Virus record (IMG/VR): IMGVR_UViG_2740892258_000013
From: a virus
Taxonomy: Duplodnaviria; Heunggongvirae; Uroviricota; Caudoviricetes
Direction: 5' to 3' (one strand)
DNA: 28,905 bases
The translations under genes were made by a program, and so were the position numbers. Under the pieces are notes generated by a model, which did no database searches, was not told the origin of the DNA, and was given only the letters and a program-made list of their open reading frames with translations. Below are positions 1 through 28,905 of this stretch, in pieces. The number at the start of each line of letters is the position of its first letter. Position 1 is the stretch's first letter.

Positions 1-1158
1 ATGCTCACCGTTAAGCAGATTGAAGCAGCAAAGCCGAAAGAAAAACCATACCGCCTACTCGATGGTAATGGCCTGTACCTTTATGTCCCTGTATCAGGGA
101 AAAAGGTATGGCAGCTTCGCTACAAGATTGACGGTAAGGAGAAAATCCTGACCGTCGGAAAATATCCACTTATGACTTTGCAGGAGGCAAGAGATAAAGC
201 ATGGACCGCGAGGAAAGACATCTCGGTTGGCATCGATCCGGTAAAAGCGAAAAAGGCTTCGTCTAACAACAATTCCTTTAGTGCGATTTACAAGGAATGG
301 TACGAGCACAAGAAGCAAGTCTGGTCAGTAGGCTATGCAACTGAACTTGCAAAAATGTTTGATGACGACATTTTACCTATCATCGGCGGCCTTGAAATTC
401 AGGATATTGAGCCGATGCAACTGCTGGAAGTAATCCGCAGATTTGAAGATCGCGGTGCAATGGAGCGAGCCAACAAAGCCCGCAGAAGATGCGGCGAGGT
501 TTTCCGTTACGCTATTGTCACTGGTAGGGCTAAATATAACCCGGCACCTGACCTTGCTGACGCCATGAAGGGATACCGCAAGAAGAACTTCCCGTTTCTT
601 CCTGCAGACCAGATCCCTGCATTCAACAAAGCACTGGCAACATTTTCAGGAAGTATCGTATCGCTCATTGCGACCAAAGTTTTACGCTACACAGCCCTAA
701 GAACGAAAGAGCTTCGTTCCATGCTATGGAAGAACGTCGATTTTGAAAACAGGATTATCACCATCGACGCCAGTGTGATGAAGGGACGCAAAATTCATGT
801 GGTCCCGATGTCAGACCAGGTGGTTGAACTTCTCACTACGCTAAGCTCCATCACCAAACCAGTATCAGAGTTTGTTTTTGCCGGGCGCAACGATAAGAAG
901 AAGCCAATCTGCGAGAACGCGGTTCTACTTGTGATCAAACAAATCGGCTATGAGGGTCTAGAAAGCGGTCACGGATTCAGGCATGAATTCAGCACGATTA
1001 TGAACGAGCACGAATGGCCTGCTGACGCTATTGAAGTGCAACTGGCACATGCCAACGGCGGATCTGTGCGCGGTATTTACAACCATGCTCAGTATCTCGA
1101 TAAGCGCAGAGAAATGATGCAGTGGTGGGCGGATTGGCTTGATGAGAAGGTAGAGTGA
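1..1158 (+). CDS. int: Phage integrase, tyrosine recombinase family
   Basis: 385-aa ORF starting at base 1. N-terminal arm-type motif AAKPKEKPYRLLDGNGLYLYV, catalytic-domain motif HGFRH and a C-terminal Tyr region (VRGIYNHAQY). The true start could lie at or just upstream of the window edge. Confidence 0.9.
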   Translation: MLTVKQIEAAKPKEKPYRLLDGNGLYLYVPVSGKKVWQLRYKIDGKEKILTVGKYPLMTLQEARDKAWTARKDISVGIDPVKAKKASSNNNSFSAIYKEWYEHKKQVWSVGYATELAKMFDDDILPIIGGLEIQDIEPMQLLEVIRRFEDRGAMERANKARRRCGEVFRYAIVTGRAKYNPAPDLADAMKGYRKKNFPFLPADQIPAFNKALATFSGSIVSLIATKVLRYTALRTKELRSMLWKNVDFENRIITIDASVMKGRKIHVVPMSDQVVELLTTLSSITKPVSEFVFAGRNDKKKPICENAVLLVIKQIGYEGLESGHGFRHEFSTIMNEHEWPADAIEVQLAHANGGSVRGIYNHAQYLDKRREMMQWWADWLDEKVE

Positions 1159-1397
1159 TCCGCCTTAACAACTATCGAAGAGCACAAAGCCTTGTGTGTC
1201 TCATAGGCTATGAAACAATCATTTTACATGGTTACTTCACTACTTCCGCACAATATGATATCGTTCACAATCTAAAAACATTAATAATTTATCCATTACC
1301 GCGGTTAATGCCCGTCGCTTCCAACGGGCTTTTTTGTAAATTATATTTTTATTACCTTATATTAATATTGGTAATATGTCTGCATGATGTTTTATAT
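1159..1397. other. AT-rich int/neuO intergenic region, candidate attP
   Basis: Lies between the convergent 3' ends of int and neuO, where P22/Sf6-type phages carry attP between the O-antigen-modification moron and int. No tRNA-derived core could be recognised by eye, so the position is inferred from gene order only. Confidence 0.25.
1310..1337 (+). terminator. Rho-independent terminator downstream of int
   Basis: Perfect 6-bp stem GCCCGT/ACGGGC with an 8-nt loop, followed by TTTTTTGT on the plus strand. Confidence 0.55.
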
Positions 1398-2111
1398 TTA
1401 TTGCGTGAGCTTCGCATGATAGCTGGAGCATCTCTTGTCATCACTAATTAGCTCCGCTTTATCCGTTCTTGCCCATATTATATTTCTTTTTATTATTTTT
1501 GCTGGATTACCGGCTGCTGCACACATAGATGGCACATCTTTAGTTACAATACTCCCATACCCAATGACAGATCCGCTTCCAACAGATACTCCTTTCATTA
1601 TAGAGACATTTCTCCCTACCCATACGTAACTAGATATAATGATATCTTTTGCCCAATTAATCCTTTTTTTGCTATGAATATCAAATATAGGATGCCCATC
1701 TGATGCACGCAAAATAACATCTCTTGCTATCATGCAGTCATGGCCAATTGTAACATTGCACTTATCAGTGACGACTTCAAAACCTGCACCTATTGTCGTT
1801 CTTCTACCGATAATAACTTTTGAACCTTTTGTTGCGACAATATCACCTTTAATCTTACTGTTTTTATGTATTCTTACGTAATTATTATCACCCCTAAATA
1901 TTACGGTAAGCCATCGACACTCAACATCATCTTCTATAATAAGTTTGTTATTGTTTCCATTGAACTGAACTTTATTCTCTTTGCTATTTACAAGATCTCC
2001 ACATACAAAAACATTACCTGACCCATTATCATCAACGGAAAACGAGTCTTGAGTCTTGAGTCTTGAGTCTTGAGTCTTGAGTCTTGAGTCTTGAGTCTTG
2101 AGTCTTAACAT
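1398..2111 (-). CDS. neuO: Hexapeptide-repeat O-acetyltransferase (polysialic acid O-acetyltransferase NeuO-like), phase-variable
   Basis: 237-aa ORF with left-handed beta-helix acetyltransferase signatures (IGRRTTIGAGFEV, GVSVGSGSVIGYGSIV). The N-terminus is (RLKTQDS)x3, encoded by 9 tandem AAGACTC heptads right after ATGTT. AGGA Shine-Dalgarno 7 nt upstream of the ATG. Sits in the moron position next to the tailspike, as described for CUS-3 (recalled). Confidence 0.85.
   Translation of the reverse strand: MLRLKTQDSRLKTQDSRLKTQDSFSVDDNGSGNVFVCGDLVNSKENKVQFNGNNNKLIIEDDVECRWLTVIFRGDNNYVRIHKNSKIKGDIVATKGSKVIIGRRTTIGAGFEVVTDKCNVTIGHDCMIARDVILRASDGHPIFDIHSKKRINWAKDIIISSYVWVGRNVSIMKGVSVGSGSVIGYGSIVTKDVPSMCAAAGNPAKIIKRNIIWARTDKAELISDDKRCSSYHAKLTQ
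2044..2106 (-). repeat. Heptanucleotide VNTR, 9 perfect copies of GAGTCTT (AAGACTC on the coding strand)
   Basis: Counted directly: 9 x 7 = 63 nt inside the neuO 5' coding region, keeping the ORF in frame. Confidence 0.95.
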
Positions 2112-2308
2112 ATTAGTATCCTACGTTATTTTACCACTAGTTACTTTTCTTGTCATTAAAAAGCATTTAAATTTTTATATTTAATTTCGTTGACGTCAAT
2201 GTTTTTTGCCAATGTACTTACTTCTTTATGTGATCAGTTCATATTTTTGACGCCAACGAAACATTTAGTGCTTCCCTTCTATTAAGTCTAACCTAGCTTT
2301 TATTCTTT

Positions 2309-3307
2309 CTATTTCTCTGCGCTGCCATGCTGCCTCGATATAGAATAAGAGATCAGGTCTGACCCCATTTCTCTGCGCTGCCATGCTGCCTCGATATAGA
2401 ATAAGAGATCAGGTCTGACCCCCCATCTAGATCCTGCTGGCGTTATTTCAACGCGCTCAATGATGTCTTCTATTACCATCACTGGATTATCATCCTCATC
2501 AACAATGATGCTCCCGTCATTATCAGTCAGCGGCATTTCCCTTTGGCCAGTAATGACGTCATCATATACTGCGGGATAATCGTCATAGCAAAGAAAGGCA
2601 TAGCGGCATGTTGTGCTTTCTTCTTCCATGAGTCCGTGAGAAATAAGAACATCACGAAGTTGCTGCGCGATTACACCATGATGTATCCTCGCCCCTTCTT
2701 CCCCCTTTATAGCGACAGCGTTCAGCCATTTATAAGCGATATACCTGACGTCACCCCAGGCATCCAGCAATGTTTCGTCAGGAGAGACCGGCTCTGTCTT
2801 TAATGTTCCGTCACTGGTAACCACAGGATTGGAGCCAAGATAAACTATCGAGAACCTGTTTCCCGGACCACCAAGAGCATTTACATTATCAAGATAAGGT
2901 TTAACATCTCCGTTCTCAAAAAGATGTTCGAGTGCGTTATATACCGCGCGACGTGGAGTACTGCTTCCGGAACCATGCAACGTTATCATTGCACCATCTG
3001 CTGAAGACGTTGTTTCACCGCCGCTAACGATTAATCTCTGAGCGGTAACATCATCAGACGGTACTTTCTTCGCAATAATGGCGTAATTACCCTCAAGTTT
3101 GACTTCCGCGCGAACTTGTCCTGATGTACCTGCATGGACAGTCAGTGACTGGACGGCAACATCATCTGTGAAATCAACGGGTACAGGAACCGTCCTCACG
3201 CCTGACGTCGACATAAAAGTAGGAAGCGTTCTGTTAGGAGTGGCTCCGTAGACAAAATCCCTTGAAACAAATTCTTCCTGTTTAATTTTCACCCTGAAAC
3301 AATACAA
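2309..3307 (-). CDS. Tailspike fragment: C-terminal stalk and chaperone-like region
   Basis: 332-aa ORF. Its C-terminus is altered by the 56-bp duplication at 2311-2422. Confidence 0.7.
   Translation of the reverse strand: MYCFRVKIKQEEFVSRDFVYGATPNRTLPTFMSTSGVRTVPVPVDFTDDVAVQSLTVHAGTSGQVRAEVKLEGNYAIIAKKVPSDDVTAQRLIVSGGETTSSADGAMITLHGSGSSTPRRAVYNALEHLFENGDVKPYLDNVNALGGPGNRFSIVYLGSNPVVTSDGTLKTEPVSPDETLLDAWGDVRYIAYKWLNAVAIKGEEGARIHHGVIAQQLRDVLISHGLMEEESTTCRYAFLCYDDYPAVYDDVITGQREMPLTDNDGSIIVDEDDNPVMVIEDIIERVEITPAGSRWGVRPDLLFYIEAAWQRREMGSDLISYSISRQHGSAEK
2311..2422. repeat. Exact tandem duplication, 2 x 56 bp (tailspike 3' end)
   Basis: Copy 1 is 2311-2366 and copy 2 is 2367-2422, identical by direct reading. 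56 is not a multiple of 3, so it shifts the frame. Confidence 0.95.
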
Positions 3308-3443
3308 ATCAGCCGGGTGACCATCGTGAACATAAGGATATTTTCTGTTGTTATCCCCTATGCTCCATGGGTTTAGAAAGTCTTCCCCACCGAAAATGTA
3401 GTACAGCCAGTTGTCTTTGATACAAACTGAACCAACACCAACC

Positions 3444-3555
3444 GCAGAGTTAACTATTCCGCCCTGATAAATCTGATCAGTAACATTAACCCACTCTACG
3501 CAGAGTTAACTATTCCGCCCTGATAAATCTGATCAGTAACATTAACCCACTCTAC
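3444..3555. repeat. Exact tandem duplication, 2 x 56 bp (tailspike)
   Basis: Copy 1 is 3444-3499 and copy 2 is 3500-3555, identical by direct reading. Confidence 0.95.
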
Positions 3556-3590
3556 ATTATCCAGACTCCACTCATTGACGTTAACTCTGG

Positions 3591-4766
3591 TCATAAATGT
3601 TCTTGGATAATTTCCTGCATAACGGTTATCAGGTTCTCCTCCTTCCCACTCACCAAATGCGCGCTCTTTCCTGCATAACGGTTATCAGGTTCTCCTCCTT
3701 CCCACTCACCAAATGCGCGCTCACTGCCAAAAATAATCAGCTCATCGCCAACTTTGGCAAAAGGAAGGTTTGAGTGATGAACATTATTTGGGAAGCGAAG
3801 AGAATTCCATGATGTACCTAAATCAGAGCTTCTGTGCAATGAACTACCGGGTTGAGTACTTAATGTCCCCCTGGTCGTCAGATACAGAATGCCATCATAA
3901 TATTTTACACATGGCTCAGATGCATTCGCCTCATATTCTGCAGGTATGCGTCTGCGAACAAAGCTACCAGGAGAACCGAAAGCATCAGAGAAATAGAGTA
4001 TCCCAAGCTCGCGTGGACCAATATCACCATTATGGTAGCCAACAGCAAAACTGTTATCGCTAATCGTCGCAAAACTGTGAATCTCAGTAACAGGAGTGCT
4101 TCCGTCAACAAAAGAAGGAATAGTTCCAAGACTGGTTTTTCTCCATGGTGACGAGTGAAATGATGTACCAAAACTCCAGTATCTACCCTCGTTATTCTGA
4201 TCCACATCCTGGGTATTTTGCGTCGTAACTGTAAAAGTATTTTTATCAATAACAGTAGTCACCGTCATATTCCCGGTAACACCTGTAACACCAGAGTTTG
4301 AGAAGTTGACAAAATCACCAGCAAATAATCCGTGATCAGTAATGCGAATATAAGCGACTTGCTGATTTGCTGCTTTCGTTATACCACCATAAACGCGAAG
4401 GCTGCGACTCATTGGGCGATCCCACAACTCTGCAACCTGCAGTTTATTTCCGCTCACGGTCCGCGTCTCAATTACAGCAAAAAGGCGATTTCTGACAACC
4501 CCCATACTCATGCAGTGATAGTTAACTGTGGGATAGTTTTCATGTAAATCTGTAAGCCATTCCGGCGTTGTCCAGGTCTTCCCGTCATCTCCTGAGCGAA
4601 CCCATGCAACATGGAGGTTATTTACACCATGGCGGTCTCCAGCCATAAAAGGCGCATAGATGACATTGTCATATACAAACGTTTTATCCTGCGTCCAGGC
4701 GTTGTACCACGGTGTATCTGTAATTTTAAATAACTCTCCCTGGATAAAATCTTCAGAATGTACCAC
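3591..4766 (-). CDS. Tailspike fragment: endosialidase catalytic (sialidase beta-propeller-like) region
   Basis: 391-aa ORF. Its first 19 residues duplicate the end of the upstream fragment (4622-4921) because of the 56-bp duplication at 4703-4814. Confidence 0.75.
   Translation of the reverse strand: MVHSEDFIQGELFKITDTPWYNAWTQDKTFVYDNVIYAPFMAGDRHGVNNLHVAWVRSGDDGKTWTTPEWLTDLHENYPTVNYHCMSMGVVRNRLFAVIETRTVSGNKLQVAELWDRPMSRSLRVYGGITKAANQQVAYIRITDHGLFAGDFVNFSNSGVTGVTGNMTVTTVIDKNTFTVTTQNTQDVDQNNEGRYWSFGTSFHSSPWRKTSLGTIPSFVDGSTPVTEIHSFATISDNSFAVGYHNGDIGPRELGILYFSDAFGSPGSFVRRRIPAEYEANASEPCVKYYDGILYLTTRGTLSTQPGSSLHRSSDLGTSWNSLRFPNNVHHSNLPFAKVGDELIIFGSERAFGEWEGGEPDNRYAGKSAHLVSGKEENLITVMQEIIQEHL
3611..3722. 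repeat. Exact tandem duplication, 2 x 56 bp (tailspike)
   Basis: Copy 1 is 3611-3666 and copy 2 is 3667-3722, identical by direct reading. Confidence 0.95.
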
Positions 4767-4814
4767 GGTGTATCTGTAATTTTAAATAACTCTCCCTGGA
4801 TAAAATCTTCAGAA
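4703..4814. repeat. Exact tandem duplication, 2 x 56 bp (tailspike)
   Basis: Copy 1 is 4703-4758 and copy 2 is 4759-4814, identical by direct reading. Confidence 0.95.
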
Positions 4815-4865
4815 ACATAAAAAAGAGGCTGACCCGGTATTCTCTCAAATAAAAAACGAGCATTT

Positions 4866-5435
4866 TTAAATCGACTGACATCTGGAAGATGTTGATACTT
4901 TAAAAGTAAGCCCTCGCCCATCTATCTTTTCACCACCTGTTGCAACAGAAAGTAATTCTGATAGAGCTGATGTATCATCATGAACACCATCACCAATAGC
5001 CCCCCAACCTCTTACATCATAACTGTCTCTCCATCTTGCTATCTGAAGTTTTGGGTATTTATTCGCTCCATCTGTGTCTTCTAATTGCTGCCGTAACTGA
5101 TCAGGATCATACTTCAGCACATTAGGAAAATAGAACTGCTGCGCACCATACGCATCATAAACAGCCATAGAATGGCCTTGCACGGTAACGAATTTGGCAA
5201 TCTGTCCGTTATATACCGGATATCCAGCAGCGTTAATGATTATTGGTTGCGAAACAGGAACGTGAGAACCGTCTTCATTCTCCACATAGACCTGAATCTG
5301 GTTTTCTGTATTTACAGGATCAGTGTCAATTTTACCGATATAAATTTTGCCATTGGCTACGGCTTTAAAAGAACGCGCCATAGTGAAGAGTTGCGAAGGC
5401 ATCGATACGATCACATTGGCTGTAATGTCTGTCAT
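4866..5435 (-). CDS. Tailspike fragment 1: P22 gp9-like head-binding domain plus start of the receptor-binding part
   Basis: 189-aa ORF, GGAG Shine-Dalgarno upstream; ends at a frameshift-induced stop. Confidence 0.8.
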
Positions 5436-5492
5436 TTAATTTGCTCCAGATACAAGGAATCGCCGAAGCATGGCTACGGTGAATTTTGGGCA

Positions 5493-5517
5493 TAAAAAAA
5501 CCCAGCCGAAGCTGGGT
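5493..5517 (-). terminator. Rho-independent terminator after ant, upstream of the tailspike gene
   Basis: On the minus strand: stem ACCCAGC/GCTGGGT with a 4-nt loop, followed by TTTTTTTATG. Confidence 0.65.
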
Positions 5518-5535
5518 CGTTGCGTTGGTTATCTA

Positions 5536-6459
5536 TCAGTAGTTATGTACTGAAGGAGGTAATTCTTTATTCTTAAGTCTCATCCATGCGGAAAGATTCG
5601 TTGGTCCGTCTGGCTCATTAATATCAACATCTCGTGTATGGTTGATTAAAACATCTCTCGCCATTCCGATAACATACGAGAATTCATGACCGTAGTCGTA
5701 GCATCTGCCGGAATAGTTCGATTGAATTTGTTTTAGCGCCTGATACAGTTCGCGGAATAATGCCTGTGAGCGGTTGGCATAATCCCATAGCCATACAAGG
5801 CTGTTTACTTCTTTTGCAGAAAGCTCGTTGGTTTTCTTCTCTTGTTTGCCAATGAACTCACCTTCAAGTGGAACTCGAGCTGCAAGTGATAGTGCTTCGG
5901 TAAACTGCTCCTCACTGATTTCTTTGTACGAACATCCAAAATGGGATTTCAGTGACGACCACATGGTGATCATCGCCTTAGCCTGTTTTTCTTTTGGCAG
6001 AGACTGACCGCGACTCATGACGAGTTGTTTAATGGCTTCCTGCTGTTCAGTGGTGATTTTACCCTGCAACGCCTTTTTAGCTTTGCGTGGGTTAACTACA
6101 TGGCCTTTAGTCCAGTACTCGTAGAGCACATCGTCACACTCTTCCTGATACTGGATTACCTTGTCGCGGATTTCAGGGCGGACTTTGTTAGGACTGATGC
6201 TGTTCAACCAAGCTGCCAATTTTCGTAAAGCCATACAAATCATGGCTTGCACCCCACCGGCAGAAGGTATGGTGATTTCCACCATACCATTCGAGAATCG
6301 TTGAGAAATCTTCTTATGTTGAGATTTCCAGTCTAGCCCCATTCCCTCAACGATAGGTTTCATTGGGGTATACGGTTCGCCGTTGTGATTGACAACATAA
6401 AGCTCTGCGCCGTGGAATGGTACATTGATAGTAGATACTGCTGTTGCTATACTTTTCAT
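5536..6459 (-). CDS. ant: Antirepressor (Ant-like)
   Basis: 307-aa ORF immediately downstream of arc in the immI-like region. The N-terminal motif VPFHGAELYVVNHNGEPYTP resembles the P22 antirepressor N-terminal domain family (recalled). Confidence 0.65.
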   Translation of the reverse strand: MKSIATAVSTINVPFHGAELYVVNHNGEPYTPMKPIVEGMGLDWKSQHKKISQRFSNGMVEITIPSAGGVQAMICMALRKLAAWLNSISPNKVRPEIRDKVIQYQEECDDVLYEYWTKGHVVNPRKAKKALQGKITTEQQEAIKQLVMSRGQSLPKEKQAKAMITMWSSLKSHFGCSYKEISEEQFTEALSLAARVPLEGEFIGKQEKKTNELSAKEVNSLVWLWDYANRSQALFRELYQALKQIQSNYSGRCYDYGHEFSYVIGMARDVLINHTRDVDINEPDGPTNLSAWMRLKNKELPPSVHNY

Positions 6460-6522
6460 GTCGTTAATTCCTATGCGTGGTTTTACGATACCGAAGCCCT
6501 GACTGTTCCCGCAGTTGGGGCT

Positions 6523-6726
6523 TCAACTTTCTGCTCTATCAGTTATATCTTTCCCTTCGTATACTTCACCTATATTGCTAATGCTGGCAGAACATCCAAG
6601 ATGCTTGTATCTTATGATGTCCAACACGCAGTCACTACACAGCATCCGACCTGTTTCTTTAGAGTAAATGTATGTTTGATCAGCGTCTGATTCGCTAATG
6701 CCGCAGAAACAACATTCTTTACTCAT
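6523..6726 (-). CDS. Small Cys-rich (zinc-ribbon-like) protein of unknown function
   Basis: 67-aa ORF with CCFC and CSDC motifs. Its ATG overlaps the arc stop (ATGA), suggesting translational coupling in an arc-orf-ant operon. Confidence 0.5.
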   Translation of the reverse strand: MSKECCFCGISESDADQTYIYSKETGRMLCSDCVLDIIRYKHLGCSASISNIGEVYEGKDITDRAES

Positions 6727-6863
6727 ACCATCACCCCCTCTCTCTTCAAGCTGTCCAGCACCCGTTTAATTACTTCTGCGCTAAACGATCGACACTCTTC
6801 CTTTGCTTTCTCTTCAAGGATTTTTTCTAACTTCTCTGGCATACGCAGTGTTTTTACCTTCAT
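6723..6863 (-). CDS. arc: Arc-like ribbon-helix-helix repressor
   Basis: The internal Met of ORF 6723-6929 (MKVKTLRMPEKLEKILEEKAKEECRSFSAEV...) is preceded by a GGAGG Shine-Dalgarno. RHH-like N-terminus in the P22 arc position. Confidence 0.6.
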   Translation of the reverse strand: MKVKTLRMPEKLEKILEEKAKEECRSFSAEVIKRVLDSLKREGVMV

Positions 6864-6968
6864 TGCATCCTCCGCTGTATGTGGTACGCATACATAGTAT
6901 TTAGGTACGCATTGATAGTCAATAGACACCTACATATCCTGTGGTAAAAAATTATTCAGGGTGTGCCG
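6864..6968. promoter_or_regulatory. Divergent promoter/operator region between arc and the plus-strand RHH-mnt genes
   Basis: 105-bp intergenic gap between divergent RHH genes. Direct repeat GGTACGCAT at 6883-6891 and 6904-6912 (21-bp spacing). Exact promoters and operators are not defined. Confidence 0.35.
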
Positions 6969-7226
6969 ATGTCTGATCGTAAGTACAAAAACCCTCAAGT
7001 GAATCTGAGGCTTCCTGTAGAGATAAAGGAACGTCTTATTGAACTGGCTGAGGCTAATTCTCGTTCATTAAATGCTGAGATGGTCGCTGCACTTGAAGCA
7101 TGGACCGAAAAAAATAAACACATTCAAGCACTAGACCTTGCAACTATAGCATCACGATTGATAGATCTTGAACATGATGTTGAGAAGTTGAAATGCATGT
7201 ATGGCAACAATAAAGACGAAAGTTAG
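6969..7226 (+). CDS. Ribbon-helix-helix (Arc/Mnt-like) DNA-binding protein, extra paralog
   Basis: N-terminus NPQVNLRLPVEIKERLIELAEANSRSLNAEMVAALEAW fits the RHH fold and has a C-terminal extension. ATG at 6969 is preceded by AGGG; the ORF track starts at a GTG at 6963. Confidence 0.6.
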   Translation: MSDRKYKNPQVNLRLPVEIKERLIELAEANSRSLNAEMVAALEAWTEKNKHIQALDLATIASRLIDLEHDVEKLKCMYGNNKDES

Positions 7227-7249
7227 AGATACTAACTTGGAGTGATGGC

Positions 7250-7498
7250 ATGGCTAGAGATGATCCGCACTTTAACTTCCGTATGCCTTTGGAAGTAAGA
7301 GAAAAATTGAAATTAAGAGCCGAGGCTAACGGAAGGTCAATGAACTCTGAGTTATTACAAATCGTTCAGGATGCGCTATCAAAACCATCACCGATTGCAG
7401 GTTACCGTGACGAAGCAGAACGTATGGCTGATCAGCAAGCAGAAATTGTTAAGAAGATGGTGTTTGAAACCCTGAAAAAAATGTACGAGACCAGATAG
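7250..7498 (+). CDS. mnt: Mnt repressor
   Basis: 82-aa ORF, near-identical to my recollection of P22 Mnt (MARDDPHFNFRMP.EVREKLK.RAEANGRSMNSELLQIVQDALSKPSP...). GGAG Shine-Dalgarno upstream. Confidence 0.9.
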   Translation: MARDDPHFNFRMPLEVREKLKLRAEANGRSMNSELLQIVQDALSKPSPIAGYRDEAERMADQQAEIVKKMVFETLKKMYETR

Positions 7499-7540
7499 GT
7501 CAATGTTTGTTCGTTGATATAAAATAACAAGGTATACATT

Positions 7541-8140
7541 GTGATTGAGATAGGCGTTATGGCCATCCTGAATCAAGAGCCAGGAAAAATTGAAAACGTT
7601 TTTTCTGACATATCAACATCTATCGAGCGTTCAATTTCAGACTTTGATCGCAGTCATAGCGGCTCTTTGTCTAAAAAACAGGCTTCTGAAGCTCTTAGCA
7701 AGATCTACTGCGTTATGTCACCTGTAGAGGAAGTTTGCAAAAAGTACATTACATTCATTGACATATTAAGTAATGGTACAGAAGAAGATATTTCCTCACT
7801 TAATATTCAACATGACGATGTAGATATGTTGAACGATCAGATATCTAAGCTTGATTATGGTATCGCGAAACTGTTGTATACCTTCTTCATCGCTGAGAAC
7901 AGCGATGCGTGGAAGCCCCATATGTCAACTCTTACAACAATGAAAAACCACTCAATCAATACTTTTATAGAATACAAAAGGCTAACAATGGGGCTTGTGA
8001 CGCTAGCAATGCAGCACATACCACTATCATATGCTGAACCTGAAGAGTTCACTGAAGAAGAGTTGGCTTCCTTCAAGAAATCAGTTGAAGATTCACATAA
8101 AAGATTTGGCATGGAAGCACCAAAATGGAAAACCGCATAA
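7541..8140 (+). CDS. Hypothetical acidic protein, first gene of the AT-rich cassette
   Basis: 199-aa ORF with a GTG start (alternative ATG at 7559). No recognisable motifs. Overlaps the next gene by 16 nt. Confidence 0.5.
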   Translation: MIEIGVMAILNQEPGKIENVFSDISTSIERSISDFDRSHSGSLSKKQASEALSKIYCVMSPVEEVCKKYITFIDILSNGTEEDISSLNIQHDDVDMLNDQISKLDYGIAKLLYTFFIAENSDAWKPHMSTLTTMKNHSINTFIEYKRLTMGLVTLAMQHIPLSYAEPEEFTEEELASFKKSVEDSHKRFGMEAPKWKTA

Positions 8141-8544
8141 GCATTGTTGTAGATGCAGCGGCTGGACCATTAGAACAATACTTTGCGAAGGCTCTTGCAA
8201 ACTACAAAAACAGAGGCACCGTTTCAGCTTATCTTGGTAAGATTGGTGGGTTTGAGAGAAACCATCACGCCGTCTTATCGGGAATTTACAAGTCGCACAT
8301 CAGGATCCCTGGAGTAGATGATCCTTGGTTAAGAACAACGCCAATACATCGTAGAGTTAGCGATAACTTTTTGATATTTGCGGTACACAACACATATCCA
8401 ATTCATATCCAGATCATTGCTATCATTAAACCTGATGGTCATGAGAAGGTAAAAAAACTATTGCCAGCCATCATTGATATAACTGAAAAAAGATTCCAAT
8501 CTCTAAATGAGAGGGAGCTTAACTCGTTGATTTCATACAAATAA
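8125..8544 (+). CDS. YafO-family toxin-like protein (putative ribosome-dependent mRNA interferase)
   Basis: 139-aa ORF. Motifs FERNHHAVL and IIAIIKPDGHEK resemble E. coli YafO (FERVAHIHL, LLIAILKPEPHK) as recalled from memory. The function is a hypothesis. Confidence 0.5.
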   Translation: MENRISIVVDAAAGPLEQYFAKALANYKNRGTVSAYLGKIGGFERNHHAVLSGIYKSHIRIPGVDDPWLRTTPIHRRVSDNFLIFAVHNTYPIHIQIIAIIKPDGHEKVKKLLPAIIDITEKRFQSLNERELNSLISYK

Positions 8545-8566
8545 AATATCAACTAAGGGGGTTGGT

Positions 8567-8890
8567 GTGTATACAACAGTTATCGCGATAGCTATCGCAC
8601 TCATTGTGGTTCAGTACCAACTGGCATCTTTAAAACAAAAGATATCTGACCTCAAGACTGAGAACGAAGCACTTAAAAACTCAATAAAAGATGAGAAGAA
8701 CAAACTATCATTCACTATATCTGATATTGAGCAATCCATTGAAATTATTGAGAATAATATTAACAGATTAAAAAAAGAAGATATTCATGAAATCAATGAC
8801 AATATCAAGGATTTGAAATCTTGGCTTAGGAATGTAGGACAAATCGCCACATCAACACGAGATAAGCTCAATACATCCATGGATGATTAA
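8567..8890 (+). CDS. Small membrane protein with N-terminal transmembrane helix and coiled coil
   Basis: 107-aa ORF with a GTG start preceded by a strong AAGGGGG Shine-Dalgarno. Hydrophobic N-terminus (YTTVIAIAIALIVVQY) followed by heptad-like charged sequence. Its stop abuts the convergent gp16 stop. Confidence 0.6.
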   Translation: MYTTVIAIAIALIVVQYQLASLKQKISDLKTENEALKNSIKDEKNKLSFTISDIEQSIEIIENNINRLKKEDIHEINDNIKDLKSWLRNVGQIATSTRDKLNTSMDD

Positions 8891-11050
8891 TTACTCCTGT
8901 GCCATTCCGCTTAGCGACGCTACAATGCCAGCCCTCGCTAAGCGATTGAACTCTTCGTTTCCAACTGCATCGCGTATTGCTTTTACGGCGGCTTTATTTG
9001 CCATAAATCTGCGTTCCGCCGCCGCTAATGCTTCTTTACTTCCGCCAGCTCTTACTGCTTTCGTGGCTTCCTGAACTGCTTTCTCTATCGCATACCGACC
9101 ACTACGTGTGGTGGCAATTTTAGATACAGCACCTTTTAGCCCGGCGCCAACTAAAGCACCTGCGGCAGCGCCTGCAATGCCCCCTCCTGCTCCACCAACA
9201 ATGGCACCTGATGTTGAATTGGCAATTGCATTTAACACTGTTGATGTGACGTTGGATAAACCGGCATCCAGATCGCGTAGTACATTGGCAGTTCTCCCTG
9301 TTCTTTCAATATACTGCTGAGGTTTCACTGCTGCTCTTGCAAGAGTGCCATATGCATCTGCAATTCTTCCAAGCTCTGAGGAATATCGGCTAATGGCTTT
9401 TACATTTTGTGGAGTGAGTATCTCTGCGATATGGTTAATTCCTGCTGCATCAGCTTTACCACCACGTACACCATGCGAGATAGCATCTTGCAACATTGAT
9501 GATATAGCAGGAACACGCTCTGATTCTGGCAGCGCGCGGATCATAGAATGGAATCCAGCAGGACCATTAAGACCTTTAGCTGACGATGATTGAAGGGATT
9601 TTACTCCATTCGTAATCAGTGCATCTGTTGCCAAATCACGCCCGAAAACAGACTCTGCACTCTCTTGTGCTGATAACCTCGCTTTAGACAGATCATTAGC
9701 TTTTTGCCAGTCATCAAGAAATCCGCCGTTTTCCGCCATTGTGCGCATATCATCAGTAATTGCCCGGCGTATTTCCCCTGCTCTCCTTGCCGCATTTGCC
9801 TCTCCGCTACGCTTATATTTTTGCTCCGCATCAGCAAATTTCGCTCTCCATGCTTTCATGCCGTCAAATGTTACTCCACCTTGATTGTTTGCCTGAACAA
9901 ACTGTTTCATTTCAGGAGTAAGCGGTATGCCGGCAGATCGCTCTGCCTGAATAACGGCATTACCATTTAGCATTCTTGCTTTTTGATTTGGCATTGTTGA
10001 CCGCACGTCATCCCATGCCGCGCGCTCGGCATCCTTCATCTGATCAAGATTTTGAAGAATCCTTTGTTTTATAGCCGCACTTTTTTCTGATGCCGTTCCA
10101 GATGCGGCCCCAAATTCATCAAGGTTTCGACTTAACTTTGATGATATTTCGTTAAATGCTGCCTGATGGGCGTCCTGAACAATTCCTGGTGTTGATGCCA
10201 ATGCGCCTTCGGCTTGTGCAATTCCACGACTTCCAGATCGCATTCCTGGTGTTAATGCGTTTATATCAATTCCAGCAGACTCAGCCGCTTTTGCTACATC
10301 TTCGGACACATTAGCGGCCTGACTGGCAATTGACTGACGCCCAGCACCTGACTTTGCCATCCTAGAAACATCATTAGCAGAATTCAGTGCTGCACCACCA
10401 AGAGCCTGTGAAACCCTTGGCGCAATAACGCGCCCGACACCTGAAAGAACGCCTTGAGCACCAATATTGATACCACCGTTAATGGCAGCATTTTGTGCAA
10501 AGTCGCCCTCCTGATTTGCAGCATCAGCAAGAGAACCTGCAATCATGTTTCCGGCGGAACCGATATCTCCAGCGAGCTTTGCTGTCGCTCCAGCAGCTTT
10601 TGCCGCTGTGCCAATTGGCAGGAGATACCCACCAATTGTTTCACCGGCTTGCGCGTAAGGGTCTGTCGGTCGCTCGGCAGGGCGATAAACATCATCCAAA
10701 ACCTTGGGGCCGCCAAGCCCCTGGCTGATTGCATTAATCAGACTTGCGCCACCCTGCAATACGTCAAATGGTATGTTTACCAGACCACGACCAGCCTGTT
10801 CTGCAATTTGCCCTGCACTTTGACCACCTGTGAGCCAATCACCAGCTTGTTGCATCAATGATGGTTCTTCTTTCTGCTGCTGAGGCGGAGGGTATGCTGC
10901 ATAAAACTGATCTCTTGCTTCAGCCCATTTGTCACCAGCCTTAGGGGCAACAACCTCATCAAAATATTGCGCTTGAGCCTGTGCTTTCTGTTCTTCAGTT
11001 AACGCCTGATACTGTGGAGAAGCGATAACATCTTTCCATGCTTTAGCCAT
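8891..11050 (-). CDS. Ejection (internal virion) protein, P22 gp16-like
   Basis: 719-aa Ala/Gly-rich ORF in the gp16 position at the end of the late operon. Overlaps the gp20 stop (TAATG). Confidence 0.8.
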
Positions 11051-28603: not shown

Positions 28604-28905
28604 GCCGCCCTGTCTCCCCATCGCGCTTTCCATTCGAGAGCCAGTCGCGCTTCGTCTGACCACTTAACGCCACGCTCTGTACCGAATGCCTGTATAAGCT
28701 CTAATAGCTCCGCAAATTCGTTTACACGCATCCTGCTGGTTGACTGGCCTATTACCACAAAGCCATTCCCGGCAAGGTTAGGAACAACATCCTGCTGCTT
28801 TAATGCTGCGGTAAACACACACTTCCAGCTTTCTGCATCCAGCCAGCGACCATGCCATTCAACCTGACGAGAGACGTCACCAAGGCAAGCCCAAAGCTTT
28901 CGATT
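28600..28905 (-). CDS. ninB: NinB recombination protein, 5'-truncated by the window end
   Basis: The reading frame is open to the window edge: ...[97 protein letters not shown], matching recalled lambda NinB. Confidence 0.8.

Follow-up and report, generated by a model that had tools for sequence, protein, structure and literature searches.

Four 56-bp tandem duplications in the tailspike gene of a CUS-3 prophage are very probably an artefact of draft genome assembly

We found that four perfect 56-bp tandem duplications recorded in the endosialidase tailspike gene siaK1 of a CUS-3 prophage are almost certainly a node-overlap artefact of de Bruijn graph assembly at k=57, introduced into the draft genome GCA_001245225.1 with a paralogous endosialidase gene as the second haplotype. 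The duplications are not biological and say nothing about the bacterium, and the comparison of sequences suggests that the four sites would be single-copy in the sequenced strain. The window analysed here is the whole stretch of 28,905 nucleotides of IMG/VR virus record IMGVR_UViG_2740892258_000013 (Caudoviricetes).

Results

Tandem Repeats Finder identified four arrays in the window, each with a period of 56, 2.0 copies, 100% matches and no indels, at the positions given in Table 1 (with the start of the second placed at 3443/3444), and direct comparison showed both halves to be identical at all four sites. All four arrays are within the minus-strand gene siaK1, as a sequence-only reading of this DNA had described, and in each case the copies are directly adjacent, with no mobile element or residual scar between the direct repeats. 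That reading had also noticed no obvious microhomology at the junctions. The period-56 run continues for 0, 1, 0 and 0 bases past 112 bp at sites 1-4, and therefore junction microhomology is absent. The same reading had proposed to look for further exact tandem duplications of 56 bp; a search of the whole window with periods of 15-300 returned only these four and the heptanucleotide array of neuO.

Table 1. Positions in the window of the features discussed in the text.
Feature	Position	Strand	Description
neuO heptad array	2044..2106	-	AAGACTC on the gene strand; 9 copies, exactly 63 bp
siaK1, CUS-3 prophage endosialidase tailspike, as recorded	about 2265..5435	-	near-identity to siaK1 of CP000711 and the UTI89 tailspike; Pfam domains
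Duplication 1	2311..2422	.	unit 2311-2366, second copy 2367-2422; first 56 bases common with the paralogue
T allele	2471..2471	.	C in CUS-3 copies; T in the IHE3034 paralogue (L022) and CE10
C allele	2968..2968	.	T in UTI89 and CUS-3; C in the paralogue and also in the CUS-3 copy of strain N1
Duplication 2	3444..3555	.	unit 3444-3499 repeated at 3500-3555; end directly precedes the AT deletion site
Bubble arm	3500..3666	.	167 bp, one graph node; paralogue allele with AT present and A at 3610
Duplication 3	3611..3722	.	unit 3611-3666 repeated at 3667-3722; start directly follows the A/G site 3610
Duplication 4	4703..4814	.	unit 4703-4758, second copy 4759-4814; last 56 bases common with the paralogue
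Single-base insertion	4890..4890	.	T on the + strand; absent from UTI89 and CUS-3; frameshift after about codon 182

Where positions are given after removal of one copy of each duplication (de-duplicated positions), 2415, 2717, 2791, 2912, 3275, 3444-5, 3498 and 4591 correspond to window positions 2471, 2773, 2847, 2968, 3331, 3556-7, 3610 and 4815, respectively.

The duplications occur in one draft assembly only. Contig CVOH01000123.1 of GCA_001245225.1 is 100% identical to window positions 1-8000 with all four duplications included. None of them was found in phage CUS-3 or in any of 194 complete E. coli genomes, where the best matches align in five pieces over 2776 bases. In an index of 153 billion gene positions, the 391-aa and 301-aa ORF products that the duplications create were found on exactly one contig, which is the source, and a junction 30-mer was absent from IMG/VR. 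An example of a 30-mer across a junction is CACCAAATGCGCGCTCTTTCCTGCATAACG, for junction 3. Comparison with the tailspike alleles of related prophages, a check that the sequence-only reading had put forward, found the duplications in none of them, and four relatives that carry the lineage-specific 1-bp insertion (L005, L006, L009 and L010) are single-copy at all four sites. Other assemblies break at the same branch points with offsets that fit their own k: one contig (L007) ends at 4591-55, and two Logan contigs (L008 and L011) end at 4659-30. The literature searched contained no paper documenting the assembly GCA_001245225.1 or the prefix CVOH01, and no paper on duplication artefacts of SSPACE, GapFiller or Velvet.

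ST95 K1 strains, IHE3034 among them, also have a second endosialidase gene, which is located in a prophage adjoining yfgI. The only 57-mers common to this paralogue and the CUS-3 copy fall within de-duplicated positions 2311-4590, a span whose limits are exactly the first base of duplication 1 and the last base of duplication 4. On the left the two genes differ at de-duplicated positions 2304, 2305, 2307 and 2310, and common 57-mers begin at 2311; on the right they differ at 4591, 4608, 4659 and 4666, and homology stops at 4690. The duplicated units adjoin 2310, 3444-5, 3498 and 4591, and at all of these sites CUS-3 copies differ from the paralogue in the yfgI prophage or from related alleles. 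The bubble arm, whose two ends are duplications 2 and 3, matches the second endosialidase gene of IHE3034, APEC O1, FDAARGOS_1303 and MS15052 at 100% identity, whereas the CUS-3 copies of close relatives carry G at 3610. The 2-bp AT deletion at window 3556-3557 is present in a close relative (L005) and in strain N1. The edges of the arm lie 56 bp outside the two differing sites (the AT deletion and the A/G site), that is, at [3444-56, 3498+56], which is the expected shape of an arm. The T at 2471 is a paralogue allele and was probably fixed when a SNP bubble was resolved. These matches identify the three "private" SNPs of the recorded gene as alleles of the second gene, and the recorded siaK1 is thus chimeric, with sequence from two paralogous endosialidase genes.

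A k=57 de Bruijn graph was simulated from both copies, and its unitigs were concatenated without trimming the k-1 overlap. The product reproduced window 1-9224 base for base, although only the break positions and the overlap length are independent predictions, the simulated haplotypes being the window itself together with alleles and flanks from other strains. The same simulation at k=55, 56 and 58 did not reproduce the window. The recorded duplications thus have the features of a node-overlap artefact: they are perfect and of one length, k-1 (four 56 bp x 2 arrays at 100%), every unit stops precisely where the graph branches, and independent assemblies of closely related genomes do not contain them. 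A simple single-SNP bubble model was rejected for duplications 1 and 4, since every SNP bubble would have to close with a further duplication at a distance of 57 bp, which is not seen; the two lack partner duplications because the paralogue flanks diverge completely beyond 2310 and 4591. The second neuO-tailspike module, near torT in strain 19AR1321 (L012), was also rejected as the second haplotype, since its 57-mers are common well outside 2311-4590 and throughout neuO, which would lead to many extra breaks.

As recorded, siaK1 is 225 nt longer than the reference gene, which corresponds to the four 56-bp duplications and one inserted base. Without the duplications it is 99.9% identical both to siaK1 of CP000711 and to the UTI89 tailspike, and it differs from CP000711 by three SNPs and one indel. 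Pfam searches of the fragments identified Head_binding, End_N_terminal, End_beta_propel, End_beta_barrel, End_tail_spike and Peptidase_S74 domains, and the gene thus belongs with the CUS-3 siaK1 tailspikes, which have a P22-type head-binding N-terminus, an endosialidase beta-propeller, a beta-barrel, a stalk and a Peptidase_S74 C-terminal chaperone. Domain order and location, between neuO and ant and adjoining argW, are those of siaK1 in phage CUS-3 (E. coli RS218, CP000711), whereas the recorded copy is disrupted.

According to the sequence-only reading, removal of one copy of each duplication restores a continuous frame with its C-terminus. By itself this removal leaves a gene of 2947 nt (1 mod 3) that is still frameshifted and contains an N-terminal ORF of 189 codons and, in a different frame, an open stretch of 810 codons; once the T at 4890 is also removed, a 981-aa ORF results, which ends ...EAAWQRREIERIKARLDLIEGKH and has 2 substitutions compared with UTI89. 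The 189-aa product of the frameshift corresponds to the minus-strand ORF at 4866-5435, and exactly this product was found on 17 contigs from several independent assemblies and metagenomes. The inserted T is located in CUS-3-specific sequence, beyond the collapsed repeat. A homopolymer-type sequencing error was rejected as its source, given the context AGA[T]GTT, which is no homopolymer, and the recurrence of the variant in 17 contigs. The insertion is real and truncates siaK1 independently of the duplications: even in the de-duplicated gene the product stops at 189 aa, and the intact frame needed for a functional enzyme is lacking. The CUS-3 tailspike of the present lineage is a natural pseudogene caused by this +1 frameshift. 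The earlier view that the prophage makes no functional tailspike therefore probably holds, with the cause being the real frameshift at 4890 and not the duplications. The true CUS-3 copy of the strain probably carries the +1 frameshift, and it may also carry the AT deletion, as in its closest relative (L005).

Decay of siaK1 is common, through IS3 and IS1 insertions or deletions, and frameshifts were seen in N1, CE10, A33 and L005. Partial matches (H148-H150) that might have represented the C-terminal chaperone module of other tail-fibre genes proved to be CUS-3 tailspikes cut by IS3-family elements. Likewise, the two siaK1 features of FN394xxx "CUS-3" records do not represent split genes; the records are partial typing sequences that have been concatenated.

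The heptad array of neuO appears to have been affected by the same assembly. There are 19 copies of the heptad in CUS-3 and about 20 in UTI89. In a graph simulation the recorded array gave loops at k=55 and 56 and none at k=57, and at 63 bp it is the longest array without a cycle in a 57-mer graph, which fits k=57-63 independently of the duplications. The array is at the loop-free maximum for a 57-mer graph and therefore has probably been collapsed in the recorded sequence.

Discussion

In de Bruijn assemblers, adjacent nodes share k or k-1 bases, and when joins or circular contigs are left untrimmed, a terminal repeat of this length remains. Two endosialidase genes are most likely present in the sequenced strain, the CUS-3 tailspike at argW and a roughly 99.5% identical paralogue whose prophage adjoins yfgI, as it does in IHE3034. 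Both copies would collapse in a k=57 graph into shared nodes over de-duplicated 2311-4590 and would split at both ends of this span and at one unresolved bubble, which would arise from the 2-bp indel at 3444-5 and the SNP at 3498, 54 bp apart. The overlap between neighbouring nodes would be k-1 = 56 bases. Five nodes would then have been placed end to end in a later joining step, with their overlaps kept, and therefore each of the four joins would appear as a perfect 56-bp tandem duplication. Duplication 1 would be the overlap of the CUS-3-specific left node with the collapsed-repeat node, duplication 2 that of a shared node with the left end of the bubble arm, duplication 3 that of the right end of the arm with the next shared node, and duplication 4 that of a shared node with the CUS-3-specific right node. 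The path through the graph would have taken the bubble arm of the paralogue, and single-SNP bubbles would have been popped by the assembler to either allele, which would also make the recorded gene a chimera. This model assumes that five single-SNP bubbles were resolved and that the bubble with the indel and SNP was left, which is plausible.

Like other k-mer-overlap artefacts, the present duplications are perfect, have a fixed length of k-1, are found at branch points, are independent of the local sequence and are absent from related assemblies. However, such artefacts are usually found at contig ends, whereas here one gene contains four of them, inside a finished contig. There is also a resemblance to the chimeric assembly of collapsed repeats, in that two copies about 99.5% identical have been merged and the consensus alternates between CUS-3 alleles (de-duplicated 2717, 2791 and 3275) and paralogue alleles (2415, 2912, 3444-5 and 3498), but a chimeric consensus alone makes no duplications and untrimmed joining would also be needed.

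The same artefact could in principle have drawn its second haplotype from a mixed culture or a contaminating K1 strain instead of from a paralogue of the same genome. From the sequence by itself it follows only that the read set contained two haplotypes, and CUS-3 alleles of the CE10 type have T2415 and likewise differ at 2304-2310 and 4591. However, a second CUS-3-type allele (L021) or a torT-type copy has common 57-mers outside 2311-4590 (e.g. at 4592-4665, 4667-4850 and 2113-2303) and would give extra break points, and none was seen; the yfgI-type paralogue of ST95 strains, on the other hand, predicts the exact limits and has all three unusual alleles. The other 24 kb of the prophage contain no sign of heterogeneity. 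We consider contamination improbable, and the second haplotype would rather be a paralogue within the same genome. Real gene conversion between endosialidase genes in two prophages of one K1 strain, which might explain the alternation of alleles in place of bubble resolution by the assembler, is also improbable, and an unknown process of 56-nt staggered cuts as the source of the duplications is even less likely.

Real mutation could mean, for example, that staggered nicks 56 nt apart were filled and religated or that repeated replication slippage inactivated the tailspike. Natural decay of siaK1 is common, and staggered cleavage characteristically leaves duplications of one fixed length. The duplications resemble the target-site duplications and excision footprints of mobile elements, which are also direct, of fixed length and free of microhomology. 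However, nothing separates the copies here, the positions are set by differences from the paralogue, and 56 bp is far above known bacterial lengths; target duplications of 56 bp are, to our knowledge, not known from any bacterial element. Four identical lengths without microhomology would not arise by slippage, and the marks of natural tandem duplication, namely presence in related isolates, variable lengths and microhomology at the junctions, were all absent from these four sites, which are known from a single draft short-read assembly. The chance that all boundaries fall next to paralogue-specific variant sites was estimated roughly as (2 x 15/2947)^4, or about 1e-8, and real mutations would not reproduce the k=57 unitig geometry exactly. 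We therefore regard real mutation as very unlikely, in agreement with the sequence-only reading, which had judged four natural duplications of the same length in one gene to be very unlikely. Among the explanations it offered, an assembly artefact, the first that it named, is strongly supported by the restriction to one assembly, by the comparison with the paralogue and by the k=57 simulation, and a systematic biological process and deliberate inactivation are not supported. Four frameshifting insertions of the same length in one gene do look designed, but the same sequence is publicly available in GenBank as a draft contig from a bacterial isolate, the graph geometry fully accounts for the positions, and siaK1 is already inactivated by a natural frameshift common to other isolates; a deliberate gene edit or an in-silico alteration of the window is thus extremely improbable.

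With assembly at k=57 as the preferred origin, the biological importance of the duplications is small, and they represent neither a new mutational process nor a deliberate inactivation. Nevertheless, the tailspike gene in a public GenBank draft is mis-joined and chimeric, and the neuO repeat of this draft is probably collapsed. Gene calling on the draft yields three spurious tailspike fragments, and the "phase-ON" repeat count that it shows for neuO should not be relied upon. The signature of the error, perfect tandem duplications of one fixed length that each lie beside a site differing between paralogues, could be screened for across draft assemblies. The underlying real biology is modest and consists of a pseudogene tailspike and of multiple endosialidase genes in many ST95 K1 strains, which carry two or more of them in different prophages.

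Architecture of the recorded locus

The window covers the left part of the P22-like prophage CUS-3, which in K1 E. coli is integrated at argW, a tRNA-Arg gene. Apart from the tailspike gene and the repeat in neuO, the window has 100% identity to UTI89 over about 24 kb. Tandem Repeats Finder identified four period-56 arrays in the window, each of two copies with 100% matches and no indels, and direct comparison showed identical halves at each of the four sites. The sequence-only reading was thus correct in describing four perfect 56-bp tandem duplications, which are beyond the reach of chance. Its statement that the junctions lack microhomology was also borne out, since the period-56 match exceeds 112 bp by only 0, 1, 0 and 0 bases at duplications 1-4. 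When all 28.9 kb were searched exhaustively for exact tandem duplications with periods of 15-300, the only other one to emerge was a heptanucleotide array (2044-2106). With one copy of each duplication removed (de-duplicated coordinates), only four positions separate the tailspike gene from those of UTI89 and CUS-3, namely three transitions and one inserted T.

Features of the tailspike region, in window coordinates
Feature	Position	Strand	Detail
Integrase	1-1158
neuO O-acetyltransferase	1398-2111	minus	AAGACTC repeat
Endosialidase tailspike siaK1	about 2265-5435	minus
ant, mnt/arc, then virion genes	beyond siaK1
Duplication 1	2311-2422		56 bp x 2
Duplication 2	3443/3444-3555		56 bp x 2
Duplication 3	3611-3722		56 bp x 2
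Duplication 4	4703-4814		56 bp x 2
Transition	2471		T for C
Transition	2968		C for T
Transition	3610		A for G
Insertion	4890		one T

Occurrence of the duplications

The source of the window sequence is an 89-kb draft contig (GCA_001245225.1 CVOH01000123.1), which has 100% identity to window 1-8000, the four duplications included. Window position 28905 corresponds to record position 89352 of 89353, at the end of this contig. The draft assembly therefore has a further break within the prophage, about 29 kb in, which presumably falls at a different repeat common to lambdoid prophages. The duplications were absent from phage CUS-3 and from the best matches among 194 complete E. coli genomes, all of which align as five pieces over 2776 bases. 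The 391-aa and 301-aa ORF products, which exist only through the duplications, were found on CVOH01000123.1 alone in an index of 153 billion genes, and the junction 30-mer was not found in IMG/VR. Four relatives that have the +1 frameshift of the window (L005, a 5.06-Mb single contig, with L006, L009 and L010) are single-copy at 4/4 sites.

Second endosialidase copies and the duplication boundaries

Multiple endosialidase genes are frequent in K1 strains. A 1039-aa endosialidase adjoining yfgI, in a different prophage, is present in IHE3034, APEC O1, FDAARGOS_1303, MS15052, EC67 and A33. This yfgI-side gene (IHE3034 2884245-2887364; also L023, L019 and L020) occurs in many ST95/K1 genomes, with neighbouring genes for a holin, a GH19 endolysin and a DUF2514 protein; its N-terminal adaptor differs, and over 2.3 kb (window 2367-4758) it is about 99.5% identical to the tailspike of CUS-3. 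In some genomes there are as many as four matching places. In 19AR1321 a second complete neuO-tailspike module lies near torT (2944911-2949039) in another P22-like prophage, so that neuO contingency loci and tailspikes are each present twice in this strain.

Endosialidase copies were aligned to the de-duplicated window, and the positions that follow are de-duplicated unless marked otherwise. Homology with the yfgI-type paralogue ends at 2297 and 4690. Towards the first of these limits the paralogue differs at 2304, 2305, 2307 and 2310, and towards the second at 4591, 4608, 4659 and 4666. Because these flanking differences are less than 57 bp apart, 57-mers are shared with the paralogue only within 2311-4590, an interval whose first 56 bases are the duplication 1 unit (2311-2366) and whose last 56 are the duplication 4 unit (4535-4590). 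A G-to-T change at 4536 (window 4704 and 4760) in L006, L009 and L010 lies two bases inside the latter unit and has no bearing on the artefact boundary, whose position depends on the variant at 4591. The unit of duplication 2 (3388-3443) is the 56 bases immediately left of 3444, and that of duplication 3 (3499-3554) the 56 bases immediately right of 3498. At 3444-5 the CUS-3 copies of L005 and strain N1 have a 2-bp AT deletion, while 3498 is G in UTI89, CP000711, L005, L006, L009, L010 and N1 and A in the window and the paralogue. Since the units of duplications 2 and 3 flank these variant sites, the 167-bp piece at window 3500-3666 corresponds exactly in shape to a bubble arm in a k=57 de Bruijn graph. 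This piece has 100% identity to the paralogue of IHE3034 and other ST95 genomes. The IHE3034 paralogue also has T at 2415 and C at 2912, so that, with A at 3498, all three apparently private SNPs of the window are paralogue alleles. The CUS-3 allele is kept at 2717, 2791 and 3275, and the tailspike gene as recorded is a mosaic of two copies.

Reproduction of the record from a 57-mer graph

We built a 57-mer graph from two haplotypes, a CUS-3 copy with the L005/N1 alleles (AT deletion, G3498) and a paralogue with IHE3034 flanks, cut the path into unitigs and joined them end to end without trimming. The unitigs (1-2366, 2311-3443, 3388-3554, 3499-4590 and 4535 onward) concatenate to window 1-9224 exactly; the interior sequence came from the window, and what the graph predicts independently is where the four overlaps fall and how long they are. 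The same construction at k=55, 56 and 58 did not reproduce the window. In agreement with this model, a SPAdes-like contig (GCA_963590765.1) stops at 4536, or 4591-55, and two Logan (k=31) contigs stop at 4629, or 4659-30; other short-read assemblies thus break at the same paralogue-specific sites, with offsets set by their own k.

Each duplication equals a k-1 overlap between graph nodes, located at a border either of a collapsed two-copy repeat or of one unresolved bubble. The assembler may have resolved the single-SNP bubbles and left the indel-plus-SNP bubble, and a scaffolding, gap-closing or finishing step would then have joined the nodes end to end. The second haplotype is probably a same-genome paralogue, since the yfgI-type copy alone entails no additional breaks; a contaminant in its place still stands as a minor variant of the same artefact. 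Real duplications, arising by staggered-cut fill-in or slippage, would have to occur in one draft assembly only and to place all four boundaries beside paralogue-specific sites; we put the chance of that placement at roughly (2 x 15/2947)^4, or about 1e-8. The public record and the graph geometry exclude engineering or planting of the changes. The duplications are not a real feature of the organism, and the k=57 node-overlap geometry and the restriction to one assembly uphold the earlier leading suspicion of an artefact. Their use is confined to marking a class of error and a public record that is faulty.

The neuO repeat

The neuO array (2044-2106) holds nine in-frame AAGACTC copies within a 237-aa ORF, and the gene is apparently phase ON in the record. 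At exactly 63 bp, the array is the longest that is cycle-free in a 57-mer graph and forms loops at k=55 and 56; this agrees with the k=57 model and is the length to which an array would collapse at k=57-63. The relatives have 19 (CUS-3) or about 20 (UTI89) copies. Neither the copy number nor the phase state given in this record is likely to be reliable.

True state of the tailspike gene

The de-duplicated gene has 2947 nt, which is not divisible by three; removing one copy of each duplication does not by itself restore the endosialidase frame, as had been proposed. The expected native C-terminus is recovered once the T at window 4890 is also removed, giving 981 aa with two substitutions relative to UTI89, both stemming from paralogue alleles. 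The inserted T, which sits in CUS-3-specific sequence, leaves a 189-aa N-terminal head-binding fragment (ORF at window 4866-5435, minus strand). An exact-protein look-up found this product on 17 contigs from several independent assemblies (isolates, a metagenome and Logan), and this recurrence identifies the +1 frameshift as a real, recurrent allele marking a lineage with a naturally inactivated tailspike. The CUS-3 tailspike of this strain is most likely a pseudogene regardless of the duplications, and the true copy probably also has the L005-type AT deletion.

In K1 genomes siaK1 has often decayed, by IS3 or IS1 insertions and deletions and by other frameshifts. This pattern suggests that selection on the prophage tailspike is relaxed or negative, with neuO retained. 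IS3-family and IS1 elements have repeatedly cut or interrupted CUS-3 tailspikes in independent K1 genomes (L016, L017, L018 and hits H24 and H30), and frameshifted tailspikes occur in N1, CE10, A33 and L005.
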